From: an uncultured delta proteobacterium
GTDB taxonomy: Bacteria > Myxococcota > Myxococcia > Myxococcales > Myxococcaceae
DNA: 64,000 bases
NCBI GenBank assembly: GCA_963776345.1
Contig: CAVZMH010000022.1
Location: 256,001 to 320,000, forward strand
Direction: 5' to 3'
The notes below the pieces were generated by a model that ran no database searches, had not been told where the DNA came from, and worked only from the letters and a program-made list of their open reading frames with translations. A program made the translations under genes and the position numbers. Of this stretch, positions 18,891 to 39,764 are shown one piece after another (position 1 is the stretch's first letter; each line of letters starts with the position of its first letter).

Positions 18891-20921
18891 ATGGCCGCGC
18901 CGCGCACCGTTCGCACCATGTGCCCGATGAACTGCCATCCCACGCTGTGCGGGATGCTGGTGGACATCGATCCGGACGGCCAGGTGACCGCGGTGCGGGG
19001 CGACCCGGGGAACCCGGACAGTCGCGGCTTCCTCTGCCAGCGCGGCCACGCGAGCCGGGAGATCATCGGTAATCCCGAGCGCCTGCTCCATCCCCTGCGG
19101 CGCAGGCCCAGGAGTGGATCGTGGCAGCGCACCTCCTGGGACGACGCGCTGGACACCATCGCCGCGACCTCGCGGGCGGTCGGCGCGGAGGCGGTGGGCG
19201 CCTGGTCGGGTCACGGGCTCTTCGCCAACAGCTACGGCACCCGGCTGCACTCCGAGCTGCTGCGCCGCTTCGCGAACCTGGCCGGCTGGCAGTGGTGGAC
19301 CCCATCGATGGTCTGCTGGGGTCTCGGTGCCTTTGGCCTCGCCTTGACCGGAGTGTTGAGGGTCCACACGCCGGAGGACCTGGCGGCGAACGCGGCGCTC
19401 GTTCTCCTCTGGGGAGCCAACCTCGCCAGCCAGCCGACCACCGGGCGGCATCTCCAGGCAGCGCGTCGACGGGGAGCGAGGGTGGTCACCCTCGACGTGC
19501 GCCGCACCGAGGCCTCGGCGCTCTCGGACGAGACGTTGCTTCTCCGGCCCGGCACGGACGCCGCGCTGGCGCTGGGGATGATGAGCGTCATCGTCTCGGA
19601 GGGGCTGCACGACCGGGAGTTCGTCGCCTCGCACACCGTCGGCTTCGAGCAGCTGGCCGCTCACCTGGCCCGTCACCCGGCGGAGTGGGCGGCGGAGGTC
19701 ACCGGCGTGCCCGCTCGAGCAGATCGTGTCGCTCGCCCGGCGCTACGCGACGACCCGCCCGGCGATGATCCTCCTGGGCGGGAGCTCGATGCACAAGGGT
19801 GCGCACGGCTGGGAGGCGGGACGCGCCGTCGCCTGCCTCCCGCGCGCTGACCGGCAACCTCGGTGTCCGTGGCGGTGGCATGGGCCCGCGGCACGGCGCA
19901 CGCGCGCACGGGCAGATGCTGGCCGACATCGCCGGCCAGCGCCGGTCCTCCACGCCCGTCGTCCCGAGCCAGATGTCCCGGGTGACGGAGGCGCTGGAGG
20001 ACGGTCGGGTGCGCGCGCTGCTCCTCTTCGGCACCGACCTGCTCTCGTCGTACGCCGACTCGGGCCGGGTGAAGGCCGCGCTCGGGAAGCTCGACCTGGT
20101 CGTCTCCCACGACCTGTTCTGGAACGGGACGGCGCGGGAGCACGCCGACCTGGTCCTGCCCTCGACCTCGTGGCTGGAGGACCTGGGGTGCAAGAGCACC
20201 AACACGCACCTCTACCTGATGCCGAAGGTGCTCGAGCCACCCGGCGAGGCGCGCTCGGTGACGCGGATCCTCCGCGAGCTCGCCCGCCGGCTCGACCTCG
20301 CCGACTTCTTCCCCTGGTCCGACGAGTCCGGACCACTCGATGCGTTGCTCGATCACCCCTCCACAGGTCGCGCCACCGTCCAGGCGCTCTCGGCCGAGGG
20401 TGGAATCTGGCCCCTCGCCATCTCACCGGTGGCCTATCCGGACCTCGCGTTCGACACGCCGTCGGGCAAGGTGGAGCTCGTCTCCGAGCGGGCCACGGCG
20501 TCTGGGCCTTCCTGCGCTGCCGGTCTTCACGCCGCCCGGGCCGCGGACCGAGCCGCTGGCGCTCCGGAGCGGGCGAACGCTGACCCACTTCCACGCCTTC
20601 TACGACCAGGGCCGGGCCTTGCCCTCGCTGGCCCGCGCCGACCCCGAGCCGGTGCTGTGGATCTCCCCGGCCGACGCGGCGGCGCGCGGGATCGGCGCCG
20701 GTGACCCGGTCCGGATCCACAACGCGCGGGGCGAGCTCTCGGCCCGGGCGGAGGTGACCGACCGCATCCCGGCCGGCACGGTGTGGATGCACGACGGATG
20801 GTCCGGGCTGAACCGCCTCACCTCGGGCGCGCCGGTCCTCCCCGACGAGGCGGTGGAGATGCCCGGCTTCTCCGGCGGCCAGGCGGAGTACGAGGCCTTC
20901 GTCGAGGTCACGCTCGGATGA
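18891..20921 (+). CDS. Molybdopterin-dependent oxidoreductase, DMSO-reductase superfamily (three apparent +1 frameshifts, near 19716, 19843 and 20501)
   Basis: N-terminal Fe-S motif CPMNCHPTLC...C, RPGTDAALALG, ALTGNLG..GGG, ADLVLPSTSWLE, TPSGKVEL, C-terminal molybdopterin dinucleotide-binding domain, spread over four ORF segments. Confidence 0.88.
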
Positions 20922-26675: not shown

Positions 26676-27524
26676 CTACCTGAACAGCGTGAGATGGATG
26701 CGGCGGTTCAAGGCGCGGTCCTCCGCGGTGCGCTCGGGCACCAGCGGGCGCGAGCTTCCGAAGCCGGTGGTCTCGATGCGCGCCGCCGCCACGCCGCGCC
26801 TCACCAGGGCTGCCTTCACCGTCTCCGCCCGCCGCTCGCTCAGCGCCTGGTTCTCCTCGACCGTCCCCGAGGCGTCGGTGTGCCCCTCGATGCGCACCCG
26901 AACCTCCGGGTCCTTCTCCAGGATTCCGCCGATCGCCCGCAGCACCCGGAAGCTCGAGGGCAGGAGCGCCGCGCTCCCACTCGCGAACTCGATGACCGTC
27001 CCGCCGAGCAGGGTGTCCACCTCCTGCTGCAGCGGCTCGGGCCTCGTGGCGACGGTGACCTGCGTCACCACGTGCATCCCGCCGGAGGACGCCTCGACCC
27101 GCCGCTCCAGCGTCTCCTTGCTGGCGGAATCGGGCACCTCGGCCACGAGCTGCACCTGTCCTGCGCCGACGTGCAGCTCGCGCCCGGAAGGAAAGAAGGT
27201 CCCCACCAGCGGACCGAGCCGGTCGGCCAGCGGACCCACCTCCGGGCTGTCGATCAGCCGGTCGACGACGCGCGTTCCCTCGGCGGCCCTTTGCAGCTCG
27301 GCCACCACCCGCGCGTGCTCCTCGCCCGGGCGAACGACTCCCGAGAGGAGGATGTCGTCGCCGCTCCGGGCGACGCTCACCTGCGCCGGGCCCGGGGTGG
27401 GCGCCGGGACCGCCGCCGCCACCGGCCGGGGAGCGATGAGCCCCCAGTGGCGATCGAGGCAGAGGAGGAAGACCGCACAGAACCCGAGGACACCGAGGAA
27501 CCACACCCGGATGGAGTTGCCCAT
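26676..27524 (-). CDS. BON-domain + OmpA-C (peptidoglycan-binding) membrane protein
   Basis: N-terminal TM; ILLSGVV and V.LVAEVPD BON-like segments; IEFASGSA, IEGHTD..G...N..LSERRA, NRRI. Confidence 0.88.
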   Translation of the reverse strand: MGNSIRVWFLGVLGFCAVFLLCLDRHWGLIAPRPVAAAVPAPTPGPAQVSVARSGDDILLSGVVRPGEEHARVVAELQRAAEGTRVVDRLIDSPEVGPLADRLGPLVGTFFPSGRELHVGAGQVQLVAEVPDSASKETLERRVEASSGGMHVVTQVTVATRPEPLQQEVDTLLGGTVIEFASGSAALLPSSFRVLRAIGGILEKDPEVRVRIEGHTDASGTVEENQALSERRAETVKAALVRRGVAAARIETTGFGSSRPLVPERTAEDRALNRRIHLTLFR

Positions 27525-27590
27525 GCGAACCGCTCCTCGGAAGGCGCCTTCCGGGGGAGGTCCTACACCTCTTGGTCGTGGGGGAGATCG

Positions 27591-27648
27591 TGCACCTTGG
27601 TGCCGATCCACGCCGGCCGGGGCGAGGCCATCCTGCACCTTGGTGCCG
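27591..27648. promoter_or_regulatory. Two identical 15-bp near-palindromic boxes (TGCACCTTGGTGCCG), putative operator
   Basis: Exact copies at 27591-27605 and 27634-27648, each with a GCACC-TT-GGTGC dyad, upstream of the BON-OmpA gene. Confidence 0.55.
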
Positions 27649-27672
27649 GTCCGGCCTGCGTCGACGCCTCGC

Positions 27673-28404
27673 TCAGAAGGCGTACCCGAGCCCGCCGAGC
27701 ACCGCCTGCTCTCCGAGGAAGCCGACCTCGACGAAGGCCTCGAGGTGCGCGGGGAGGCTGAAGCTCGAGCCGGCGCTGAGCCGGTAGTGGTAGACGTCGC
27801 TGCCGGTGAACGACTGGCCACCCGGCGCGAACCAGACCGGCCCTCCGAAGAAGGCCACCCCGACGTAGGGCAGCCAGACGTCGAACAGCCGCTTGCCGAG
27901 GATGGCGGACGCCCGGATGTCCGAGGCGGTGAACGTCGGCCGGTCCGCCGGGTCCGACCTCGACTGCGTGCCTGCAACGGCGATGCTCACCGCCGCGCTG
28001 ACCGCGAGGTACGGCCGGGGGCCGGTCCCGTCGAGGAAGGTGTACCCGACCGAGGCGCTGGCGATGACTCCCGGCTTCAGGTCGTAGTTGCCGAGCGGCC
28101 CCTCCAGGCTCCCGGCGACGATCGCCCCGAGCGAGACCTGGAAGGAGAGCGCGGAGGGCCGGTAGGTGAACGCCACTGCCGCGCTGGCCTGTTCCAGCCG
28201 CTGGCGGTTTCCGTCGAATGTGAGATCGGTGCGCAGGCCGCCGCCGGTGAGCGCGAGCTGGAACCGCCGCTCCTCGTCGAGCGCCGCGCCGCAGGTGCCC
28301 GTGAGACCCACGGGCGGCGCCACGCCTCAGGCCCGTGCGGGCGGCGGACGCCAGAGCAGGGCGAGGACACAGCCGGAGGCGACGACTCGGAGTGCTCGAT
28401 GCAT
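27673..28404 (-). CDS. Putative selenoprotein: signal peptide, Sec26 (in-frame TGA), outer-membrane beta-barrel-like domain
   Basis: ATG 28404 reads MHRALRVVASGCVLALLWRPPPARA, then TGA (28327-28329), then GVAPPVGLTGTC in the same frame as ORF 27673..28323. SECIS-like hairpin follows. Alternating amphipathic strands and C-terminal GLGYAF. Confidence 0.72.
28297..28315 (-). promoter_or_regulatory. Putative bacterial SECIS element
   Basis: GCCCGUG-GGUCU-CACGGGC: perfect 7-bp stem with a GGUCU loop, starting 11 nt after the in-frame UGA, as in E. coli fdhF. Confidence 0.68.
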
Positions 28405-28488
28405 CGACGGGTCGGACCTAGTCCCTCCGGGATGGATGCGCCAGCGCCGCCTCAACCTGTGGGTCGCTCCGGTGTTCCTCGCCCCGAC

Positions 28489-29010
28489 GTGCGCTTCGCC
28501 CTCCTCATCGCAGCCATCGCGATCGCCTGTGCCTCGGCGCCGACGACCGCACCGCGCGCCGTCGCCCAGCCTGCCGACCTGCCTCGATCGTCCATCGCCG
28601 CGGTCCTCCTCCACCGCGAGGAGCTGCGCTTGACCGCGACGCAGGTGGATGCGCTCGGGCGGCGCGACGAGGAGCTCCAGCGCGAGGACGCAGCCCTCCG
28701 GGCGCGACTCGCCGCGGGCTCCGAGGTGCCGGCGGCGGCTCCGCAGGCGTCGATGACGGGCGCGGGCCGGGGTGGCCGTCACGGCGGGCGGCGCCCGTCC
28801 ACCCAGGCGCATGCCCCGGATCTCCTCACCCGACTCGACGACGACGACACCCGGGCGTACCTCGAGGTGGAGGCGCAGGTGCTCACCGAGCAGCAGCGGC
28901 CCCGGGCGCAGCAGATCGCCTCGCAGTACCGCGAGGCCCTCTACGACCGGCAGCATCCATCCCGCACCCCAAGGGAAGGTGCGGCGGACGCGGGCTGGCC
29001 CGGGGGATGA
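28489..29010 (+). CDS. Lipoprotein with LTxxQ motifs (Spy/CpxP/ZraP-like helical periplasmic protein)
   Basis: GTG start, hydrophobic stretch ending AIAC, LRLTATQ and VLTEQQ motifs, helical composition; alternative ATG at 28432. Confidence 0.7.
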   Translation: MRFALLIAAIAIACASAPTTAPRAVAQPADLPRSSIAAVLLHREELRLTATQVDALGRRDEELQREDAALRARLAAGSEVPAAAPQASMTGAGRGGRHGGRRPSTQAHAPDLLTRLDDDDTRAYLEVEAQVLTEQQRPRAQQIASQYREALYDRQHPSRTPREGAADAGWPGG

Positions 29011-34346: not shown

Positions 34347-34462
34347 GGGAAGGCCCGGGCCAGCACCCACAGGCCGGCGATCTCCAGCGCGAGCACCACC
34401 AGGATCAGCGCGTAGAGCCGGCTCCAGCGCTCGGCCGGCTCCTCAGCCTCCTGCTCAGCCAC
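34343..34462 (-). CDS. 39-aa single-pass membrane protein (probable SSS accessory subunit)
   Basis: GTG start: MAEQEAEEPAERWSRLYALILVVLALEIAGLWVLARAFP*. Overlaps both neighbouring genes (translational coupling). Not in the ORF track. Confidence 0.75.
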   Translation of the reverse strand: MAEQEAEEPAERWSRLYALILVVLALEIAGLWVLARAFP

Positions 34463-36947
34463 CCGCGTCCACCAGGTTGGCGAACAGCCGGAACGCGCCC
34501 GGCACCCCGGCGGGGAGCTGCCGGAAGAACGACAGCCCGGTGTAGACGAAGGCGCCCTTCCCGGACCGGGCGATCAGGATCGAGCCCTTCAACGGCGGCT
34601 CACCAGGGTCGTGCATCGCCAGCGGCGCGGCGTAGCGCGGATCCCACGACTCCGCGAAGTACAGCCCGCGCTCCTGCACCCACCCCGCCCAGTCGTCGGG
34701 CCCGATGCGGTTGGGGCCGGTGAGCACCGGGTGCGCCGCCGCCTCGACCGCCGCCGTCTCGTCGGTGACCCGTCCGTGGCCGATCTGGAAGGGGAAGGGC
34801 CCGAGGTCGGGCGGCGCCGAGGAGATCCAGTTGCTGGTCACGTACTGCACCAGCACCGTCCCGCCCGAGGCAACGTACTCCATGAGCTTGGGGTGGAGCG
34901 CCTGCAGCTGCGGCTCGACGTTGAACGCCCGGATGCCGAACACCACGGCGTCGAAGCGGCCCAGGGCGCTCTCTCGCAGGTCGGCGAGCGACAGCGGCGT
35001 GACCTCGTACCCCGCCTGACGCAGCGCCTCGGGCACCTCGTCTCCGGGGCCGGGGACGTAGCCGATGCGATGCCTGGCGTGCGCCACGTCGGCGCGGGTG
35101 AGCTGGACCGTGGCCGGCGGGAGCCAGGTCTGGATGGGGATGTGGGCCGCGTCGATGCGGTGCAGGCCACGATCGAACCGCTGGCCGTCCACCGTGGCGA
35201 CCGCGCGGAGCGTCCCGCGCGCGGCGGTCCGCGGAGGGCTCACCCGAAAGCGGAGCGTGGACTCGCCGCCGGCCTTCACGGTGAACGGCGCGCTCGCTGG
35301 CTCGGCGGAGAACCCCGGTGGAAGCTCGAGGGCCAGCGTGCCCGAGGCGCCGCGGACGCTGCGCACCGTCACCTCGAGCTGGCGGGGGGAGGCGTCCGGG
35401 AAGAGCAGGAGCCCGCTGGGCGGATCCACCGTCACCGCCGGCAGGACCTCGAGCCGGCGGTAGCGCTCTCCGATCACCGGGTCGGTCCACTTGTAGGCCA
35501 CCGGCCGGTGGACGGTGATGGACTCGCTCCCGAAGGCGAAGACCAGCTCCGCCTCGAGCGGCGCCGGCTCCTCGGGGAGCCCCGCCAGCGCCGGGTCCCG
35601 CACCGGGTAGAGGCCCGGCTCCGGCGCGTCCAGCCAGGCGGGGTTGGAGAGGCGCGTGTCCGCTGGGACCTCGAGCGGCGCCTTCGCCTCGAGCGGGACG
35701 CCGGCCTTCAGCGCGGACGGCCCGAGCAGCGCGCGGCTACCCACCCGGGCCGAGGTGAGCGAGACCTGCGCCGGCCGGCGGAGCAGCACGCTGGTGGTCG
35801 CGGTCACGCTGCCGCCGGGCGAGGTGCTGGGGCGGTCCGCGGTGACGTCGGCGAAGAGCCCGGCGCAGGCGAGCACCGCCCGGTCGACCTCGCCGAGCTT
35901 CGCCTCCTTCCACGGATGCTCGGGCATCCGCCGCAGCTCGGCGCGCGCGGCGAGGAGCCCCGGGATCGCGGCCTCGGGAGCGCCCGTCCGGTACGCCTGG
36001 CGTGCCCGCTTCAGCTCCGAGACCAGGCGCGCCGTCCCGGGCACGCGCGACCAGTCGAATGTCACGCCATCCAGCGGCCCGTCCTTCATCGCCTCGCCGG
36101 CGAGGGGGTGAAAGGCCTCGATCGTCGGACCGCGGCGTCGCGCCGCGCCGAAGCCCTGGCTCTTGTGGTTGCTGCGGCTGTCGGCGGCGAGCTCCGGATA
36201 CGACAGCCCGAGCCACGGGTCGTAGCCGCCCACGTCGAGGTGAGGGAGCTTTGCCAGCTCCGCATCCGACTTCCCGAAGAAGTTGCTCTCGTTCCACACC
36301 ACCCGGCGCGCCTTCCACGGGCCCAGCCGCCGGTGCTCGGCATCCGGCATGTACGAGGGATCCGCGGCGCGGGTGAACGCCTCCACCGCCAGCCGCGCCG
36401 AGGCGGTGTGCTGCCCGTGCGTCTCGCCGGCCTCGAGGGGGAAGCGGGTGATGATCACGTCCGGACGGAACCGCCGGATGGCGAGCACCACGTCGGCGAG
36501 CAGCGCGTCGTGCCCCCAGATGGAGAGCGACTCCTCGGGACTCTTCGAGTAGCCGAAGTCCCGCGCCCGGGTGAACAGCTGCTCGGCCCCGTCCATCGCG
36601 CGCGCCGCGAGCAGCTCCTGGGTGCGGATGAGCCCGAGCGCGGGGCCCAGCTCCGGGCCGATCAGGTTCTGGCCGCCGTCGCCCCGCGTCACCGACAGAT
36701 AGCCGGTGCGAAGCAGCGAATGGTTGGAAAGGTAAGCCAGGAGGCGGGTGTTCTCGTCGTCCGGGTGGGCGGCGACGTAGAGGACACCTCCCACCACCAG
36801 CAACCGATCGAGCCAGCGTTCCAGCCGCGCTCCATCGGGCTGGGAGGGGCGCAGGGTGGGCGCAGCGTTCGCGGTGGAGAGCAGCAGGGGCAGGGTGAGG
36901 ACCATCGGGGCAAGCAAGACGCGGCGCGCGCGTTTGGACGGGTGCAT
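34455..36947 (-). CDS. Secreted PIG-L/LmbE family deacetylase with Ig-like (NEW3-like) and glutamine-amidotransferase-like C-terminal domains
   Basis: Signal peptide ending ANA; AAHPDDE, TRGDGGQN, RTQELLAAR..DG, DFGYSKS, HGQH; C-terminal WVQERGLYF and FFRQLPAGVPGAFRL. Start may be ATG 36905. Confidence 0.9.
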   Translation of the reverse strand: MHPSKRARRVLLAPMVLTLPLLLSTANAAPTLRPSQPDGARLERWLDRLLVVGGVLYVAAHPDDENTRLLAYLSNHSLLRTGYLSVTRGDGGQNLIGPELGPALGLIRTQELLAARAMDGAEQLFTRARDFGYSKSPEESLSIWGHDALLADVVLAIRRFRPDVIITRFPLEAGETHGQHTASARLAVEAFTRAADPSYMPDAEHRRLGPWKARRVVWNESNFFGKSDAELAKLPHLDVGGYDPWLGLSYPELAADSRSNHKSQGFGAARRRGPTIEAFHPLAGEAMKDGPLDGVTFDWSRVPGTARLVSELKRARQAYRTGAPEAAIPGLLAARAELRRMPEHPWKEAKLGEVDRAVLACAGLFADVTADRPSTSPGGSVTATTSVLLRRPAQVSLTSARVGSRALLGPSALKAGVPLEAKAPLEVPADTRLSNPAWLDAPEPGLYPVRDPALAGLPEEPAPLEAELVFAFGSESITVHRPVAYKWTDPVIGERYRRLEVLPAVTVDPPSGLLLFPDASPRQLEVTVRSVRGASGTLALELPPGFSAEPASAPFTVKAGGESTLRFRVSPPRTAARGTLRAVATVDGQRFDRGLHRIDAAHIPIQTWLPPATVQLTRADVAHARHRIGYVPGPGDEVPEALRQAGYEVTPLSLADLRESALGRFDAVVFGIRAFNVEPQLQALHPKLMEYVASGGTVLVQYVTSNWISSAPPDLGPFPFQIGHGRVTDETAAVEAAAHPVLTGPNRIGPDDWAGWVQERGLYFAESWDPRYAAPLAMHDPGEPPLKGSILIARSGKGAFVYTGLSFFRQLPAGVPGAFRLFANLVDAGG

Positions 36948-36972
36948 GGGCACTGGTACGGTGGAATCTGGC

Positions 36973-38577
36973 ATGGCTTCGGACTTCTTCGCGCAGTTCA
37001 TCGCCGGGGAAGCCGACGCCGCGACACTCCTGCCCGCGAGCCCGCTGGACCCGAAGGCCTGGGACCAGGCCACGGCCCGCGCCTCGCGGCGCCGGCCGGT
37101 GCAGGGAGTGGTCGAGGAGCTGCAGCGACAGGCGGCGGCGCTGCCGGCCTCCGCCGCGCGGGATGCGGCCCTCGCCGCGCTCGAGCTCCCGGGGACGACC
37201 TGCGTCGTGACCGGACAGCAAGTCGGTGTCTTCCTCGGTCCGCTGTACACGTTGCACAAGGCCGCGACCGCGGTGGCGCGGTCCAGGTGGCTCGGCGAAC
37301 GCACGGGGCGGCCGTGCATTCCAGTCTTCTGGCTGCAGACCGAGGACCACGACTGGGCGGAGGTGGCCCGGTTCGACGGCTGCGTGCGCGGGAGCTGGAG
37401 CTCGGGCCGGCTTCCCCCCGAGCCGGCCGCCGAGGCCCGCGTGTCCCTGGCCCATCGCCGGCTCCCGCCGGAGGTCGAGGTCCACCTCGCGGCCCTCTCG
37501 CGGACGCTGGCCCCGCTGCCGCACGGCGCCGCGGTGTCGGCGCTCCTCGGCCGGCACTACGTCGCGGGGCGCTCGCCCGGCGCGGCCTTCGCCGGGGTCC
37601 TCTCCGAGCTGTTCGCCGAGGAGGGCCTGGTGCTGCTCGATCCGCGGACCCCCGCCATGGCGGCGCGTGCCGCGCCTCTGGTCCGCTTCGCGCTCGAGGA
37701 GCACGACGCGATCGGAGCCGCGCTCGAGGCGCGCTGCATGGAGCTCGCCCGCCACGGGTTCCACGAGCAGGTGCACACCCGCGCCGACGCCTCGCTGGCC
37801 TTCTTCCACCCCGCCGGCCCCGCGGGCCCCCGCTTCCGGCCGGACCGCGACGGTGACGGGTTCCGCACGCCGCTCGGGAGGGTCTCGCTGGCCGAGCTGC
37901 GCGCGCGGCTCGCCGACGTTCCGCTCTCCTTCAGCACCTCGGCGCTGCTGCGCCCGCTGGTGCAGGACACGCTGCTGCCCACCGCGGCGTACCTGGGTGG
38001 ACCGGCCGAGTGCACCTACTTCGCCCAGCTCCCGCCCCTCTACCAGCTGGCCGGGGTGGAGCTGCCGATGATCGGCCCGCGGGCGAGGTTCCGGGTGGTG
38101 GACCCGTGGACCGCCGGAGCGCTCGGGCGGCTCGGGCTCACTGCGGAGGACACGGACCAGCCGGTCCACGCGCTGGCCGCGCGGCTCCACGCCTGGCCTC
38201 CCTGGATGGACGGCTCGCTCCGCCAGCGTCTGCTCGGGCCCGTCGAGCGGGAGCTGGAGGCGCTCCGACCCGAGGCGGTGGCGCTCGACCCCGCGCTGGC
38301 CCGGAACGTGGAGAAGACCAGGGCGCACCTGGCGCGCGGCGTGGACCGCTTCATCGGCCGGCTGCAGCGCGCGGTGCTCTCCTCGAGCGGCGTGGGAACG
38401 GGCGCCCTCACCGCCCTCGAGCAGGTGACCGCGGCGCTGAACCCGGGAGGACGGCCCCAGGAGCGCGTGCACGGATTCTGGGCCATCGCCGCCGAGGTGG
38501 GTCCGCGCGCCCTGGTCTCCAGCCTGGTGGCGGCCGCCGCGCCGCTCTCGCCCGAGCTGCGGACGGTGCGGCCGTGA
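36973..38577 (+). CDS. bshC: Bacillithiol biosynthesis cysteine-adding enzyme BshC
   Basis: VVTGQQ.G.F.GPLYT..KA, PVFWLQTEDHDWAE, S.SALLRPLVQD.LLPT.AY.GGPAE..Y, PQER. Confidence 0.92.
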   Translation: MASDFFAQFIAGEADAATLLPASPLDPKAWDQATARASRRRPVQGVVEELQRQAAALPASAARDAALAALELPGTTCVVTGQQVGVFLGPLYTLHKAATAVARSRWLGERTGRPCIPVFWLQTEDHDWAEVARFDGCVRGSWSSGRLPPEPAAEARVSLAHRRLPPEVEVHLAALSRTLAPLPHGAAVSALLGRHYVAGRSPGAAFAGVLSELFAEEGLVLLDPRTPAMAARAAPLVRFALEEHDAIGAALEARCMELARHGFHEQVHTRADASLAFFHPAGPAGPRFRPDRDGDGFRTPLGRVSLAELRARLADVPLSFSTSALLRPLVQDTLLPTAAYLGGPAECTYFAQLPPLYQLAGVELPMIGPRARFRVVDPWTAGALGRLGLTAEDTDQPVHALAARLHAWPPWMDGSLRQRLLGPVERELEALRPEAVALDPALARNVEKTRAHLARGVDRFIGRLQRAVLSSSGVGTGALTALEQVTAALNPGGRPQERVHGFWAIAAEVGPRALVSSLVAAAAPLSPELRTVRP

Positions 38578-39764
38578 GCGCGCTCGGCGTCGGCATCGCC
38601 TGCTTCCCCACGGTGGGCGGGAGCGGAGTCGCCGCCTCTCAGCTCGCGATGCAGCTGGCCGCGCGCGGCCACCGGGTCCACGTCTTCTCCGCGGGTGTCC
38701 CGGTGCGCCTGGAAGGGGCTGGCCCGTGGACGGTGCACCGGGTCGCCACCTCACCCCGGCCCCCGTCCGAGGCGGTGGCGCAGCCGATCGCGCTGGCGAG
38801 GGCCATGGCGGAGGTGACGGTGCGCGAATCGCTGGACCTCCTGCACGTGCACTACGCGCTCCCGCACGGGCCCGCGGCGCTGCTCGCCCGGGAACTGGTG
38901 CGAGGCCAGGGTCGCCGGCCTCCGGGGCTGGTCACCACGCTGCACGGCACCGACGTGACCGGCGTGGCGCACGACGCGGCGATGCGCGCGCAGGTCCGCG
39001 AGGCGGTGCTCGGCAGCGGCGCGGTCCTCACCCCGTCCGCCTGGCTGCGCCGGGTGGCGATCGAGACGCTCGCGCTCCCGCCGAGCGTCGGGGTGGCGGT
39101 GGTGCCGAACTTCGTCGACCCCCGGACGTTCCACCCGCTCGACGACGGCGCGGGGGAGGTGCCGGCGCTCTTCCCCGCGCTCGACTGGAGCCCCGGCCGG
39201 CGTCCCGCGGTGCTGCTCCATGCCTCCAACTTCCGGCCGGTGAAGCGGGTGGGCGACGCGGTGCGGGCGCTGGCCGAGGTGCGGCGCAGCCGGGCGGCGG
39301 TGCTGGTGCTGGTGGGCGATGGGCCGGATCGCGAGGCCGTGGAGGCGCTCGCGGCTTCGCTCGGCGTCCGGGACGCGGTGGCCTTCGCCGGGGAGCGCCG
39401 CTCGCTGGGCGACCTCTTCGCCCACGCCGATCTGTTCCTGCTCCCCAGCGCGCAGGAGAGCTTCGGCCTCGCCGCGCTCGAGTCGCTGGCCTCGGGCGTC
39501 CCGGTGGTGGCCAGCGACGTGGGTGGCGTGCCCGAGGTGGTGACCCACGGCGAGACGGGCTGGCTCGTGCCGCCCGGGGATCCGGCGGCGATGGCGTCGG
39601 CGGCGCTCTCCCTGCTCGCCGACCCGCCTCGGCGCGCGGCGATGGGCCGGGCGGCGCGGGCGGCGGCCCTCGCGCGCTTCCAGCCCGGGCCGCTGGTCTC
39701 GCGGGTGGAGGAGATCTACCGCGGGGTCTTGGCACCGGCGTCCGGCGATCCAGCTCCCGGCTGA
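38574..39764 (+). CDS. bshA: N-acetyl-alpha-D-glucosaminyl L-malate synthase BshA (GT4)
   Basis: IACFPTVGGSG, LHVHYALPH, TTLHGTD, HASNFRPVKR, ESFGLAALE; GTGA-coupled to bshC. Confidence 0.93.
   Translation: MSALGVGIACFPTVGGSGVAASQLAMQLAARGHRVHVFSAGVPVRLEGAGPWTVHRVATSPRPPSEAVAQPIALARAMAEVTVRESLDLLHVHYALPHGPAALLARELVRGQGRRPPGLVTTLHGTDVTGVAHDAAMRAQVREAVLGSGAVLTPSAWLRRVAIETLALPPSVGVAVVPNFVDPRTFHPLDDGAGEVPALFPALDWSPGRRPAVLLHASNFRPVKRVGDAVRALAEVRRSRAAVLVLVGDGPDREAVEALAASLGVRDAVAFAGERRSLGDLFAHADLFLLPSAQESFGLAALESLASGVPVVASDVGGVPEVVTHGETGWLVPPGDPAAMASAALSLLADPPRRAAMGRAARAAALARFQPGPLVSRVEEIYRGVLAPASGDPAPG

Follow-up and report, generated by a model that had tools for sequence, protein, structure and literature searches.

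A well-supported selenoprotein gene of Myxococcota, uncatalogued among the sources checked, that encodes a predicted outer-membrane β-barrel

In the window, that is, the whole 64,000-nucleotide stretch of DNA analysed here, a minus-strand frame opens with ATG at 28404, ends with a terminal stop at 27673–27675 and contains a single internal TGA at 28329–28327, which is codon 26. The residues before this TGA are PPPARA, a Cys follows at position 38, whose codon is the only Cys codon 3′ of the TGA in the gene, and the protein ends in GLGYAF. A sequence-only reading of this DNA had claimed that two open reading frames called here are one gene interrupted by an in-frame TGA at codon 26, and inspection of the frame confirmed that both parts are read in register from 28404 to 27673. 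Its neighbours in the window are an OmpA/BON gene and a divergent gene that lacks annotation. The latter (approximately 28490–29010, plus strand) has a leader resembling that of a lipoprotein (LLIAAIAIAC), followed by a body that looks helical, and gave no Pfam hit. A search of 27450–28650 gave neither a sigma-70-like promoter nor an intrinsic terminator. The features of the locus are as follows.

27673..28404, minus strand: full gene for a 243-aa precursor with one UGA read through; the frame has no other internal stop
28330..28404, minus strand: predicted signal peptide of the signal-peptidase-I type, residues 1–25, ending A-R-A (pattern and hydropathy)
28327..28329, minus strand: in-frame TGA, putative selenocysteine 26 and predicted mature residue +1 (conservation, Cys interchange and run contigs)
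28297..28315, minus strand: putative SECIS hairpin with a 7-bp stem and a GGUCU loop at 28304–28308 (consensus fit, conservation and covariation)
28291..28293, minus strand: Cys38, the invariant partner cysteine (100% in 148 aligned sequences)
28264..28329, minus strand: Gly/Pro-rich N-terminal arm, residues 26–47 (low confidence in the model)
27676..28263, minus strand: predicted β-barrel of ten long strands (AlphaFold, fold matches and conservation)

The codon at 28327–28329 was bridged by assembled contigs of the public runs X3, X4 and X8, which belong to three studies and one of which may be the window's own source; run X1 gave no bridging record. The result showed that these contigs differ from the window at 8–16 other places but carry the same TGA at codon 26. 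The sequence-only reading had proposed to check this codon in raw reads; at the level of contigs it is TGA in all three runs, and a sequencing error at 28327–28329 is excluded.

A protein search returned 110 matches. Among the 35 that were aligned, 33 are annotated as starting downstream of codon 26, and the other two span it and have Cys at both 26 and 38. The downstream annotations in this first search favour a reading in which the TGA terminates translation, was miscalled in sequencing or encodes Trp, and the barrel protein starts after it. However, proteins called in this way have no signal peptide, whereas the upstream leader is conserved in frame: an upstream start, 16–40 codons away with no intervening stop, was present in 147 of 148 family members.

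When 401 genomes of the phylum were searched with a profile, 69 gave matches. Of the 76 profile matches, 70 were taken as loci (six short fragments were omitted), and three of these end at a contig edge before the site. In the 67 readable loci the site is TGA in 63, Cys in one and neither in three. The 63 TGA loci, distributed over 60 genomes, have a leader, the TGA, the motif G-[VIL]-x-x-x-[VI]-G and a later Cys; 57 of them encode no Cys other than Cys38, and in 40 the terminal stop is itself TGA. Of 40 full-length database proteins, 37 have Cys as the residue immediately following the A-x-A site, and 63 distinct Cys-codon loci were obtained. These results answer the question, raised by the sequence-only reading, of which residue homologues have at position 26: it is TGA or Cys. 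The family is large, with 507 clusters at 50% identity found by its profile. A DNA pattern comprising the TGA and the hairpin region was found in at least 120 GTDB stretches, with about 270 estimated, in a set that is preselected for TGA and overlaps the loci of the genome profile search. Of the 120 pattern matches listed, the HMM places 113 in the family; two more show its N-terminus on truncated contigs, and the remaining five, from other phyla, matched by chance. The titles of the carriers name Myxococcaceae, Anaeromyxobacteraceae, Polyangiaceae, Kofleriaceae, Haliangiales, Enhygromyxa and unclassified ‘proteobacterium’ MAGs; three cultured strains carry the gene, namely Minicystis rosea DSM 24000 and Enhygromyxa salina SWB005 and SWB007.

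In the three loci with neither codon the barrel is kept. L055 has GGA instead of TGA, with the hairpin surviving, and L088 and L089 have lost both Sec26 and Cys38 and are also altered at H206, R184 and E232; this joint change, seen in one lineage, hints that the Sec/Cys pair and the three other residues are coupled. Some further variants were noted: P0158 and P0222 have Ser at +1 in place of Sec/Cys; the distant homologues P0152, P0193 and P0206 have extra or rearranged N-terminal cysteines (ACGASC, ACGCG) and may form a sister family; and G392, G205 and G236 hold two TGA-bearing copies each, which may be paralogues or strain mixtures.

The E. coli fdhF-type hairpin is an example of a bacterial SECIS. 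In the window the corresponding element, GCCCGTG-GGTCT-CACGGGC, begins 11 nt past the UGA and its loop begins 18 nt past it. The bacterial SECIS consensus, in the accessible part of its source (PMC13188914, section 5), has a loop of 3–9 nt, a G in the first two loop positions, a spacing of 16–37 nt and an MFE of −7.5 or lower. The window hairpin, with an MFE of −14.0 kcal/mol, agrees with all four of these constraints, and the earlier claim of a canonical SECIS just 3′ of the UGA holds at the spacing of the model. In DNA this rich in GC its folding energy is not remarkable against shuffled sequences (z between −0.54 and −2.28 for four tested segments), so the case for the hairpin rests on conservation and covariation.

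In 55 distinct TGA regions, pairing in the stem reaches 91.9%, and five of its seven pairs show changes on both sides, the covariation counts being cells among related sequences and not independent events. These pairing and covariation values were reached by none of 500 shuffles, and registers slid along the sequence were 29–48% paired. The outermost pair is weak and is unpaired in 20 of the 55 regions. The loop-closing pair, which joins two third-codon positions, is C-G in 33, G-C in 21 and U-A in one, and is never unpaired. In addition, 61 of 63 genes encode the loop Gly by GGT, a codon used for 136 of the 1747 other Gly residues of these genes (7.8%). Hairpins of the family type occur after 62 of 63 TGAs, a count that is partly circular as the test was defined on the TGA set itself, after five of 63 distinct Cys codons and after none of 45 terminal TGA stops. 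Under the generic published SECIS model, hairpins were found at 59 of 63 TGA loci, 14 of 63 Cys loci and eight of 45 terminal TGA controls. Taken together, these comparisons indicate that selection acts on the hairpin as RNA in the TGA carriers. Conservation of the hairpin in TGA-bearing homologues, which the sequence-only reading had set as a check, was thus borne out, the hairpin being both kept and covarying.

One metagenomic subclade, marked by GVSTADGL as its arm peptide, comprises six TGA loci, which form one clade, and 25 Cys-codon loci. In every one of the six TGA loci, a 7-bp stem encloses a GGTCT loop at the same distance as in the main clade, and the peptide encoded there differs from that of the main clade. 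Among the 25 Cys loci the full hairpin is present in one (L246), and one more has a 6-bp stem and an altered loop. In a tree built from the barrel part of 151 sequences (quick search, rooted at the midpoint, without an outgroup) the Sec forms of the subclade lie deep among Cys forms, and three Sec/Cys label changes are needed, two of them forced by well-supported branches. The simplest reading is that Sec was apparently regained once from a Cys lineage; repeated loss is the alternative. The nested Sec clade offers a clean natural experiment on the origin of a SECIS inside coding sequence.

The sequence-only reading had also asked whether the genome holds selA, selB, selD and tRNA-Sec. All were found: the window's genome (98% complete) contains SelA, SelB, a SelD with its own in-frame TGA, and tRNA-Sec. 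SelA was detected in 58 of 60 TGA-carrier genomes compared to 292 of 401 overall, a tally that includes genome G195 and is drawn from related, not independent, genomes. The two TGA-carrier genomes with no SelA hit have selB and tRNA-Sec, and all 60 TGA genomes have some Sec machinery. In contrast, G005, the sole Cys-form genome (100% complete), has no selA, selB or tRNA-Sec. SelA was present in four of five further genomes, with M. rosea and both E. salina strains among those that have it. In the selD of genome G000 (L010:1531-1580, G000:C20) Sec lies in CAG-U-AAK with the hairpin GCAGGUCCUGC, which is farther from the UGA than in the barrel family and has a similar GGUC loop. A further in-frame TGA, at 401696 on the minus strand of G000:C15, lies in the ORF of an exported protein (FYCSNKL-U-TSSHTAA) that looks rhodanese-like on reading its sequence, and has a GGUCG-looped hairpin; this ORF resembles the catalogued rhodanese-like selenoprotein form 1 (UxxS).

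A TGA and a paired hairpin kept in dozens of myxobacterial genomes, with Cys in relatives, make a Sec codon very likely, and on this sequence evidence codon 26 is almost certainly decoded as Sec. Against the alternative of a stop, an error or a Trp codon stand the alignment of the site with Cys and not Trp, the use of TGA as a real terminal stop in 40 of 63 members, the unchanged codon in three runs and a covarying hairpin that tracks the TGA; this alternative is accordingly very improbable. Recoding of TGA to Trp in particular was rejected on the first two of these grounds. The sequence-only reading had named beforehand what would count against it (another codon in the reads, a genome devoid of the machinery, unrelated residues in homologues, a hairpin not conserved), and each of the checks that were run came out in favour of the selenoprotein reading.

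The leaders of 148 members show a hydrophobic stretch at −19 to −8; position −6 is Pro in 58%, and positions −3 and −1 are Ala in 93% and 94%, respectively. A lipobox has the pattern [LVI][ASTVIG][GAS]-C right after the hydrophobic region. This pattern was found in one of the 148 members, and residue −2 is charged or His (D/E/K/R/H) in 108. A lipoprotein with a lipidated residue +1 was rejected on these two counts, and a lipid anchor on residue 26 is unlikely. Together with the rarity of the lipobox, the hydrophobic core and the favoured Pro and Ala positions of the leader predict cleavage by signal peptidase I just before the Sec/Cys.

Sec/Cys26 and Cys38 are both 100% conserved in 148 aligned sequences and are separated by 10–16 residues over a Gly/Pro linker. 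AlphaFold, run on the mature alignment of 148 full-length sequences, gave a model with a mean pLDDT of 91.1 and a pTM of 0.85, which contains ten long strands and a short hairpin and leaves the N-terminal arm unplaced; a first model was in agreement. The first 20 residues are uncertain, with pLDDT below 50 at mature residues 4–12 and 14–16. The secreted β-barrel of the sequence-only reading is therefore predicted with high confidence, its top matches being to outer-membrane barrel folds, and the mature barrel is predicted to lie in the outer membrane. Invariant or nearly invariant positions are U/C26, G27, C38, D162, R164, Y180, FGGP186–189, D203, H206, E226 (or D) and E232, with D162, D203, H206 and E232 conserved at 95–100%; H206 is replaced by Lys in 15 of 148 sequences, which are distant representatives. 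Position 184 is Arg in 89% and Ala in the window protein, and the last residue is F in 70% and L in 24%. From the alternation of residues along the strands, we infer that D162, R164, Y180, H206 and E226 would face the lumen and that the arm would start on the periplasmic side. The arm residues of the model superpose on the pre-barrel segments of autotransporters (model ranges starting at 3–6), which is a weak hint that the arm may fold into the lumen.

Of 210 loci, 105 had at least 1200 nt of downstream sequence available for the comparison of gene neighbourhoods. Neighbourhood clustering and Pfam scans revealed no neighbour common to the whole family. A di-haem cytochrome c peroxidase gene lies downstream of the barrel gene in 22 loci and a PPK2 gene upstream in 23, largely in the same clade. 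Since the unrelated PPK2 gene matches the peroxidase gene in frequency and clade, the peroxidase link may be plain synteny. In nine loci, which belong to one lineage comprising the nested Sec clade and its sisters, a sulfite-reductase-like gene lies just downstream, and in L242 cysA- and cysK-like genes lie upstream. More widely, L242, L266, L235 and their relatives have cysA- and/or cysK-like genes together with an opposite-strand DUF488 gene upstream. A glutathione peroxidase gene is found beside L298. These redox- or sulfur-related neighbours, which occur in separate lineages, lend a redox role weak and lineage-bound support. Among 200 neighbouring ORFs scanned there were no mer, cop or cus genes and one protein with a MopE motif.

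Elsewhere in the window, a molybdopterin oxidoreductase is spread over three reading frames at 18891–20921 (plus strand), probably owing to assembly indels or a broken gene. At 34455–39764 there are a BshC gene, a family-4 glycosyltransferase gene and a divergent PIG-L deacetylase-like gene, which suggests that bacillithiol synthesis is encoded approximately 6–11 kb from the barrel gene.

The following mechanism is proposed. SelB, acting at the covarying hairpin, would direct decoding of the UGA as Sec26; the precursor would be cleaved after A-R-A, as predicted, and folded into a ten-stranded outer-membrane barrel; the flexible N-terminal arm would likely carry a reversible Sec26–Cys38 selenenylsulfide; and this bond may form a redox-active gate or relay through which a small polar solute is handled in the conserved, charged lumen. 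The Se–S bond, the redox cycling and the channel activity are each put forward here as proposals for the barrel protein, and a redox-active arm that gates or serves a polar channel is favoured tentatively, at slightly less than an even chance. The best guess for the solute, weakly suggested by the neighbourhoods, is a sulfur or selenium compound or another thiol-reactive species. Given two invariant chalcogen residues, a flexible arm and a spacing of 10–16 residues, closure of a loop by an Se–S or S–S bond is the simplest arrangement, and this spacing fits loop closing better than a rigid chelate. In the accessible part of PMC13188914, redox or metal-binding sites are given as the main places where Sec is used.

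Such a bond may instead be only a structural staple, formed quickly in the periplasm, in which case any selenium dependence would be incidental or would serve to switch expression. In an exported protein, a pair of invariant chalcogen residues would normally be oxidised, Cys forms are common (63 distinct ones), and an early UGA makes export dependent on selenium, all of which are consistent with a staple. However, costly Sec has been retained over a wide clade and apparently regained once, and we know of no general reports of Sec in purely structural bonds, so a staple seems improbable. Retention of costly Sec across the phylum argues that the bond is reactive, beyond a structural role, and thus favours the redox-active arm.

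Alternatively, the N-terminal amine, Sec26 and Cys38, perhaps with His206 and Asp203, might bind Cu(I) or Hg(II) in a channel for metal uptake or export. When its amine is free, an N-terminal Cys or Sec makes a good bidentate ligand, and conserved His, Asp and Glu residues are available in the barrel. The tie of several predicted selenoproteins to metal handling, reported in the accessible part of PMC13188914, speaks for a metal-binding role. The absence of mer, cop and cus genes from the 200 neighbouring ORFs scanned, where one MopE-motif protein was seen, and the variable U-to-C spacing of 10–16 speak against it, and soft-metal binding is considered unlikely. Of the two roles offered by the sequence-only reading, redox chemistry is thus the better supported, whereas soft-metal capture loses ground for want of mer/cop neighbours and on account of the spacing.

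The conserved Asp, His, Arg and Glu residues could instead form the active site of an outer-membrane enzyme, with the N-terminal Sec/Cys as a nucleophile activated by its own amine. The omptin pOmpT is among the closest folds (Z 14.4, rmsd 3.6, 194 aligned), D162, D203, H206 and E232 are conserved at the level given above, and the modelled arm overlies the pre-barrel segments of autotransporters. Nevertheless, identity to pOmpT is 11%, there is no omptin or enzyme profile match, the placement of the arm is of low confidence and H206 is Lys in the 15 distant representatives. An enzyme therefore appears improbable, to about the same degree as the staple or very slightly less so, and we retain the redox-active arm as the preferred reading. 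A broader proposal, which is speculative and more doubtful than the redox-active arm itself, is that of a Myxococcota-wide class in which signal peptidase would unmask a Sec with a free α-amine, acting at the cell surface as a catalytic nucleophile or redox gate, with selection for Sec strong enough for one Cys lineage to have regained it and remade the GGUCU hairpin from another peptide.

The family adds to the known selenoproteins a large group that gene callers truncate, the estimate of about 270 GTDB stretches coming from one narrow DNA pattern. The cultured carriers M. rosea and E. salina, which we take to be aerobic myxobacteria, make the Sec claim directly testable. According to the accessible part of PMC13188914, aerobic bacteria rarely retain selenoproteins, and the very likely presence of a selenoprotein in aerobic cultured carriers contrasts with this rarity.

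No NCBIfam family was found for the barrel protein, and no member reaches any NCBIfam selenoprotein model. There is likewise no Pfam family, generic barrel hits being confined to a few members (PF13505 in eight of 148), and a PDB sequence search gave only two chance-level matches (E 0.12 and 0.22). Foldseek returned generic barrel matches with a TM of about 0.5, and an ESM Atlas search with P0103, a natural Cys homologue, returned unnamed clusters and generic barrel families. Our literature search found no description of the family, although other recent candidate lists could contain it. Deng et al. reportedly applied deep-Sep to groundwater MAGs in 2026, and the resulting list is said to include unvalidated candidates. 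The accessible parts of the deep-Sep (PMC12013277), ExtI (PMC5877670) and BSepDB (PMC13326102) papers, the last of which collects previously reported selenoprotein families, describe no such protein. The sequence-only reading had not recognised the protein as a described selenoprotein, and the family is indeed absent from NCBIfam 20.0 and from the 119-family table in the accessible part of PMC13188914.

In that part of PMC13188914, Table 1 (119 families) includes as barrels identifiable by name the GSU2204 family and the TonB-dependent receptor of the FCYXU type, and contains no small outer-membrane barrel that has Sec as predicted mature residue +1 and a partner Cys far from it. The GSU2204 (NF041027, MtrB/PioB-type) and FCYXU (NF049945) models gave no NCBIfam match to the 148 members or to 12 further full-length Cys forms; unlike these proteins, the barrel family has no CXXCH and no CxxU, and its mature form has only 218 residues. 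The COG4313/PF13557 channels share with it a signal peptide and an outer-membrane barrel, but PF13557 matched one of 148 members (E 0.0015) and the fold scores are lower (4RL8, Z 8.7; FapF, Z 10.0). These channels have 12 strands, compared to ten long strands in the barrel model.

The closest folds are those of the Legionella Dot/Icm porin I (9nh1; Z 14.8, rmsd 4.1, 178 aligned), pOmpT (7xw0), OpcA (2vdf; Z 13.7, rmsd 3.7, 183 aligned) and the designed barrel TMB10 (Z 13.2), all at 6–11% identity and with no sequence or profile match. OmpT and OpcA are ten-stranded barrels, and to our knowledge no N-terminal Sec/Cys pair occurs in omptins, OpcA or the Legionella porin I.

With other bacterial selenoproteins of the SelB/SECIS type the barrel family shares the in-frame UGA, a coding-region hairpin with a GG-U loop, Cys homologues and selABCD. 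It differs from them in having no UxxC, CxxU or other listed motif, and in that its Sec is the predicted first residue of the mature protein, with the partner Cys 10–16 residues away. The gene is thus a well-supported selenoprotein gene, uncatalogued among the sources checked, whose decoding mechanism is the known one.
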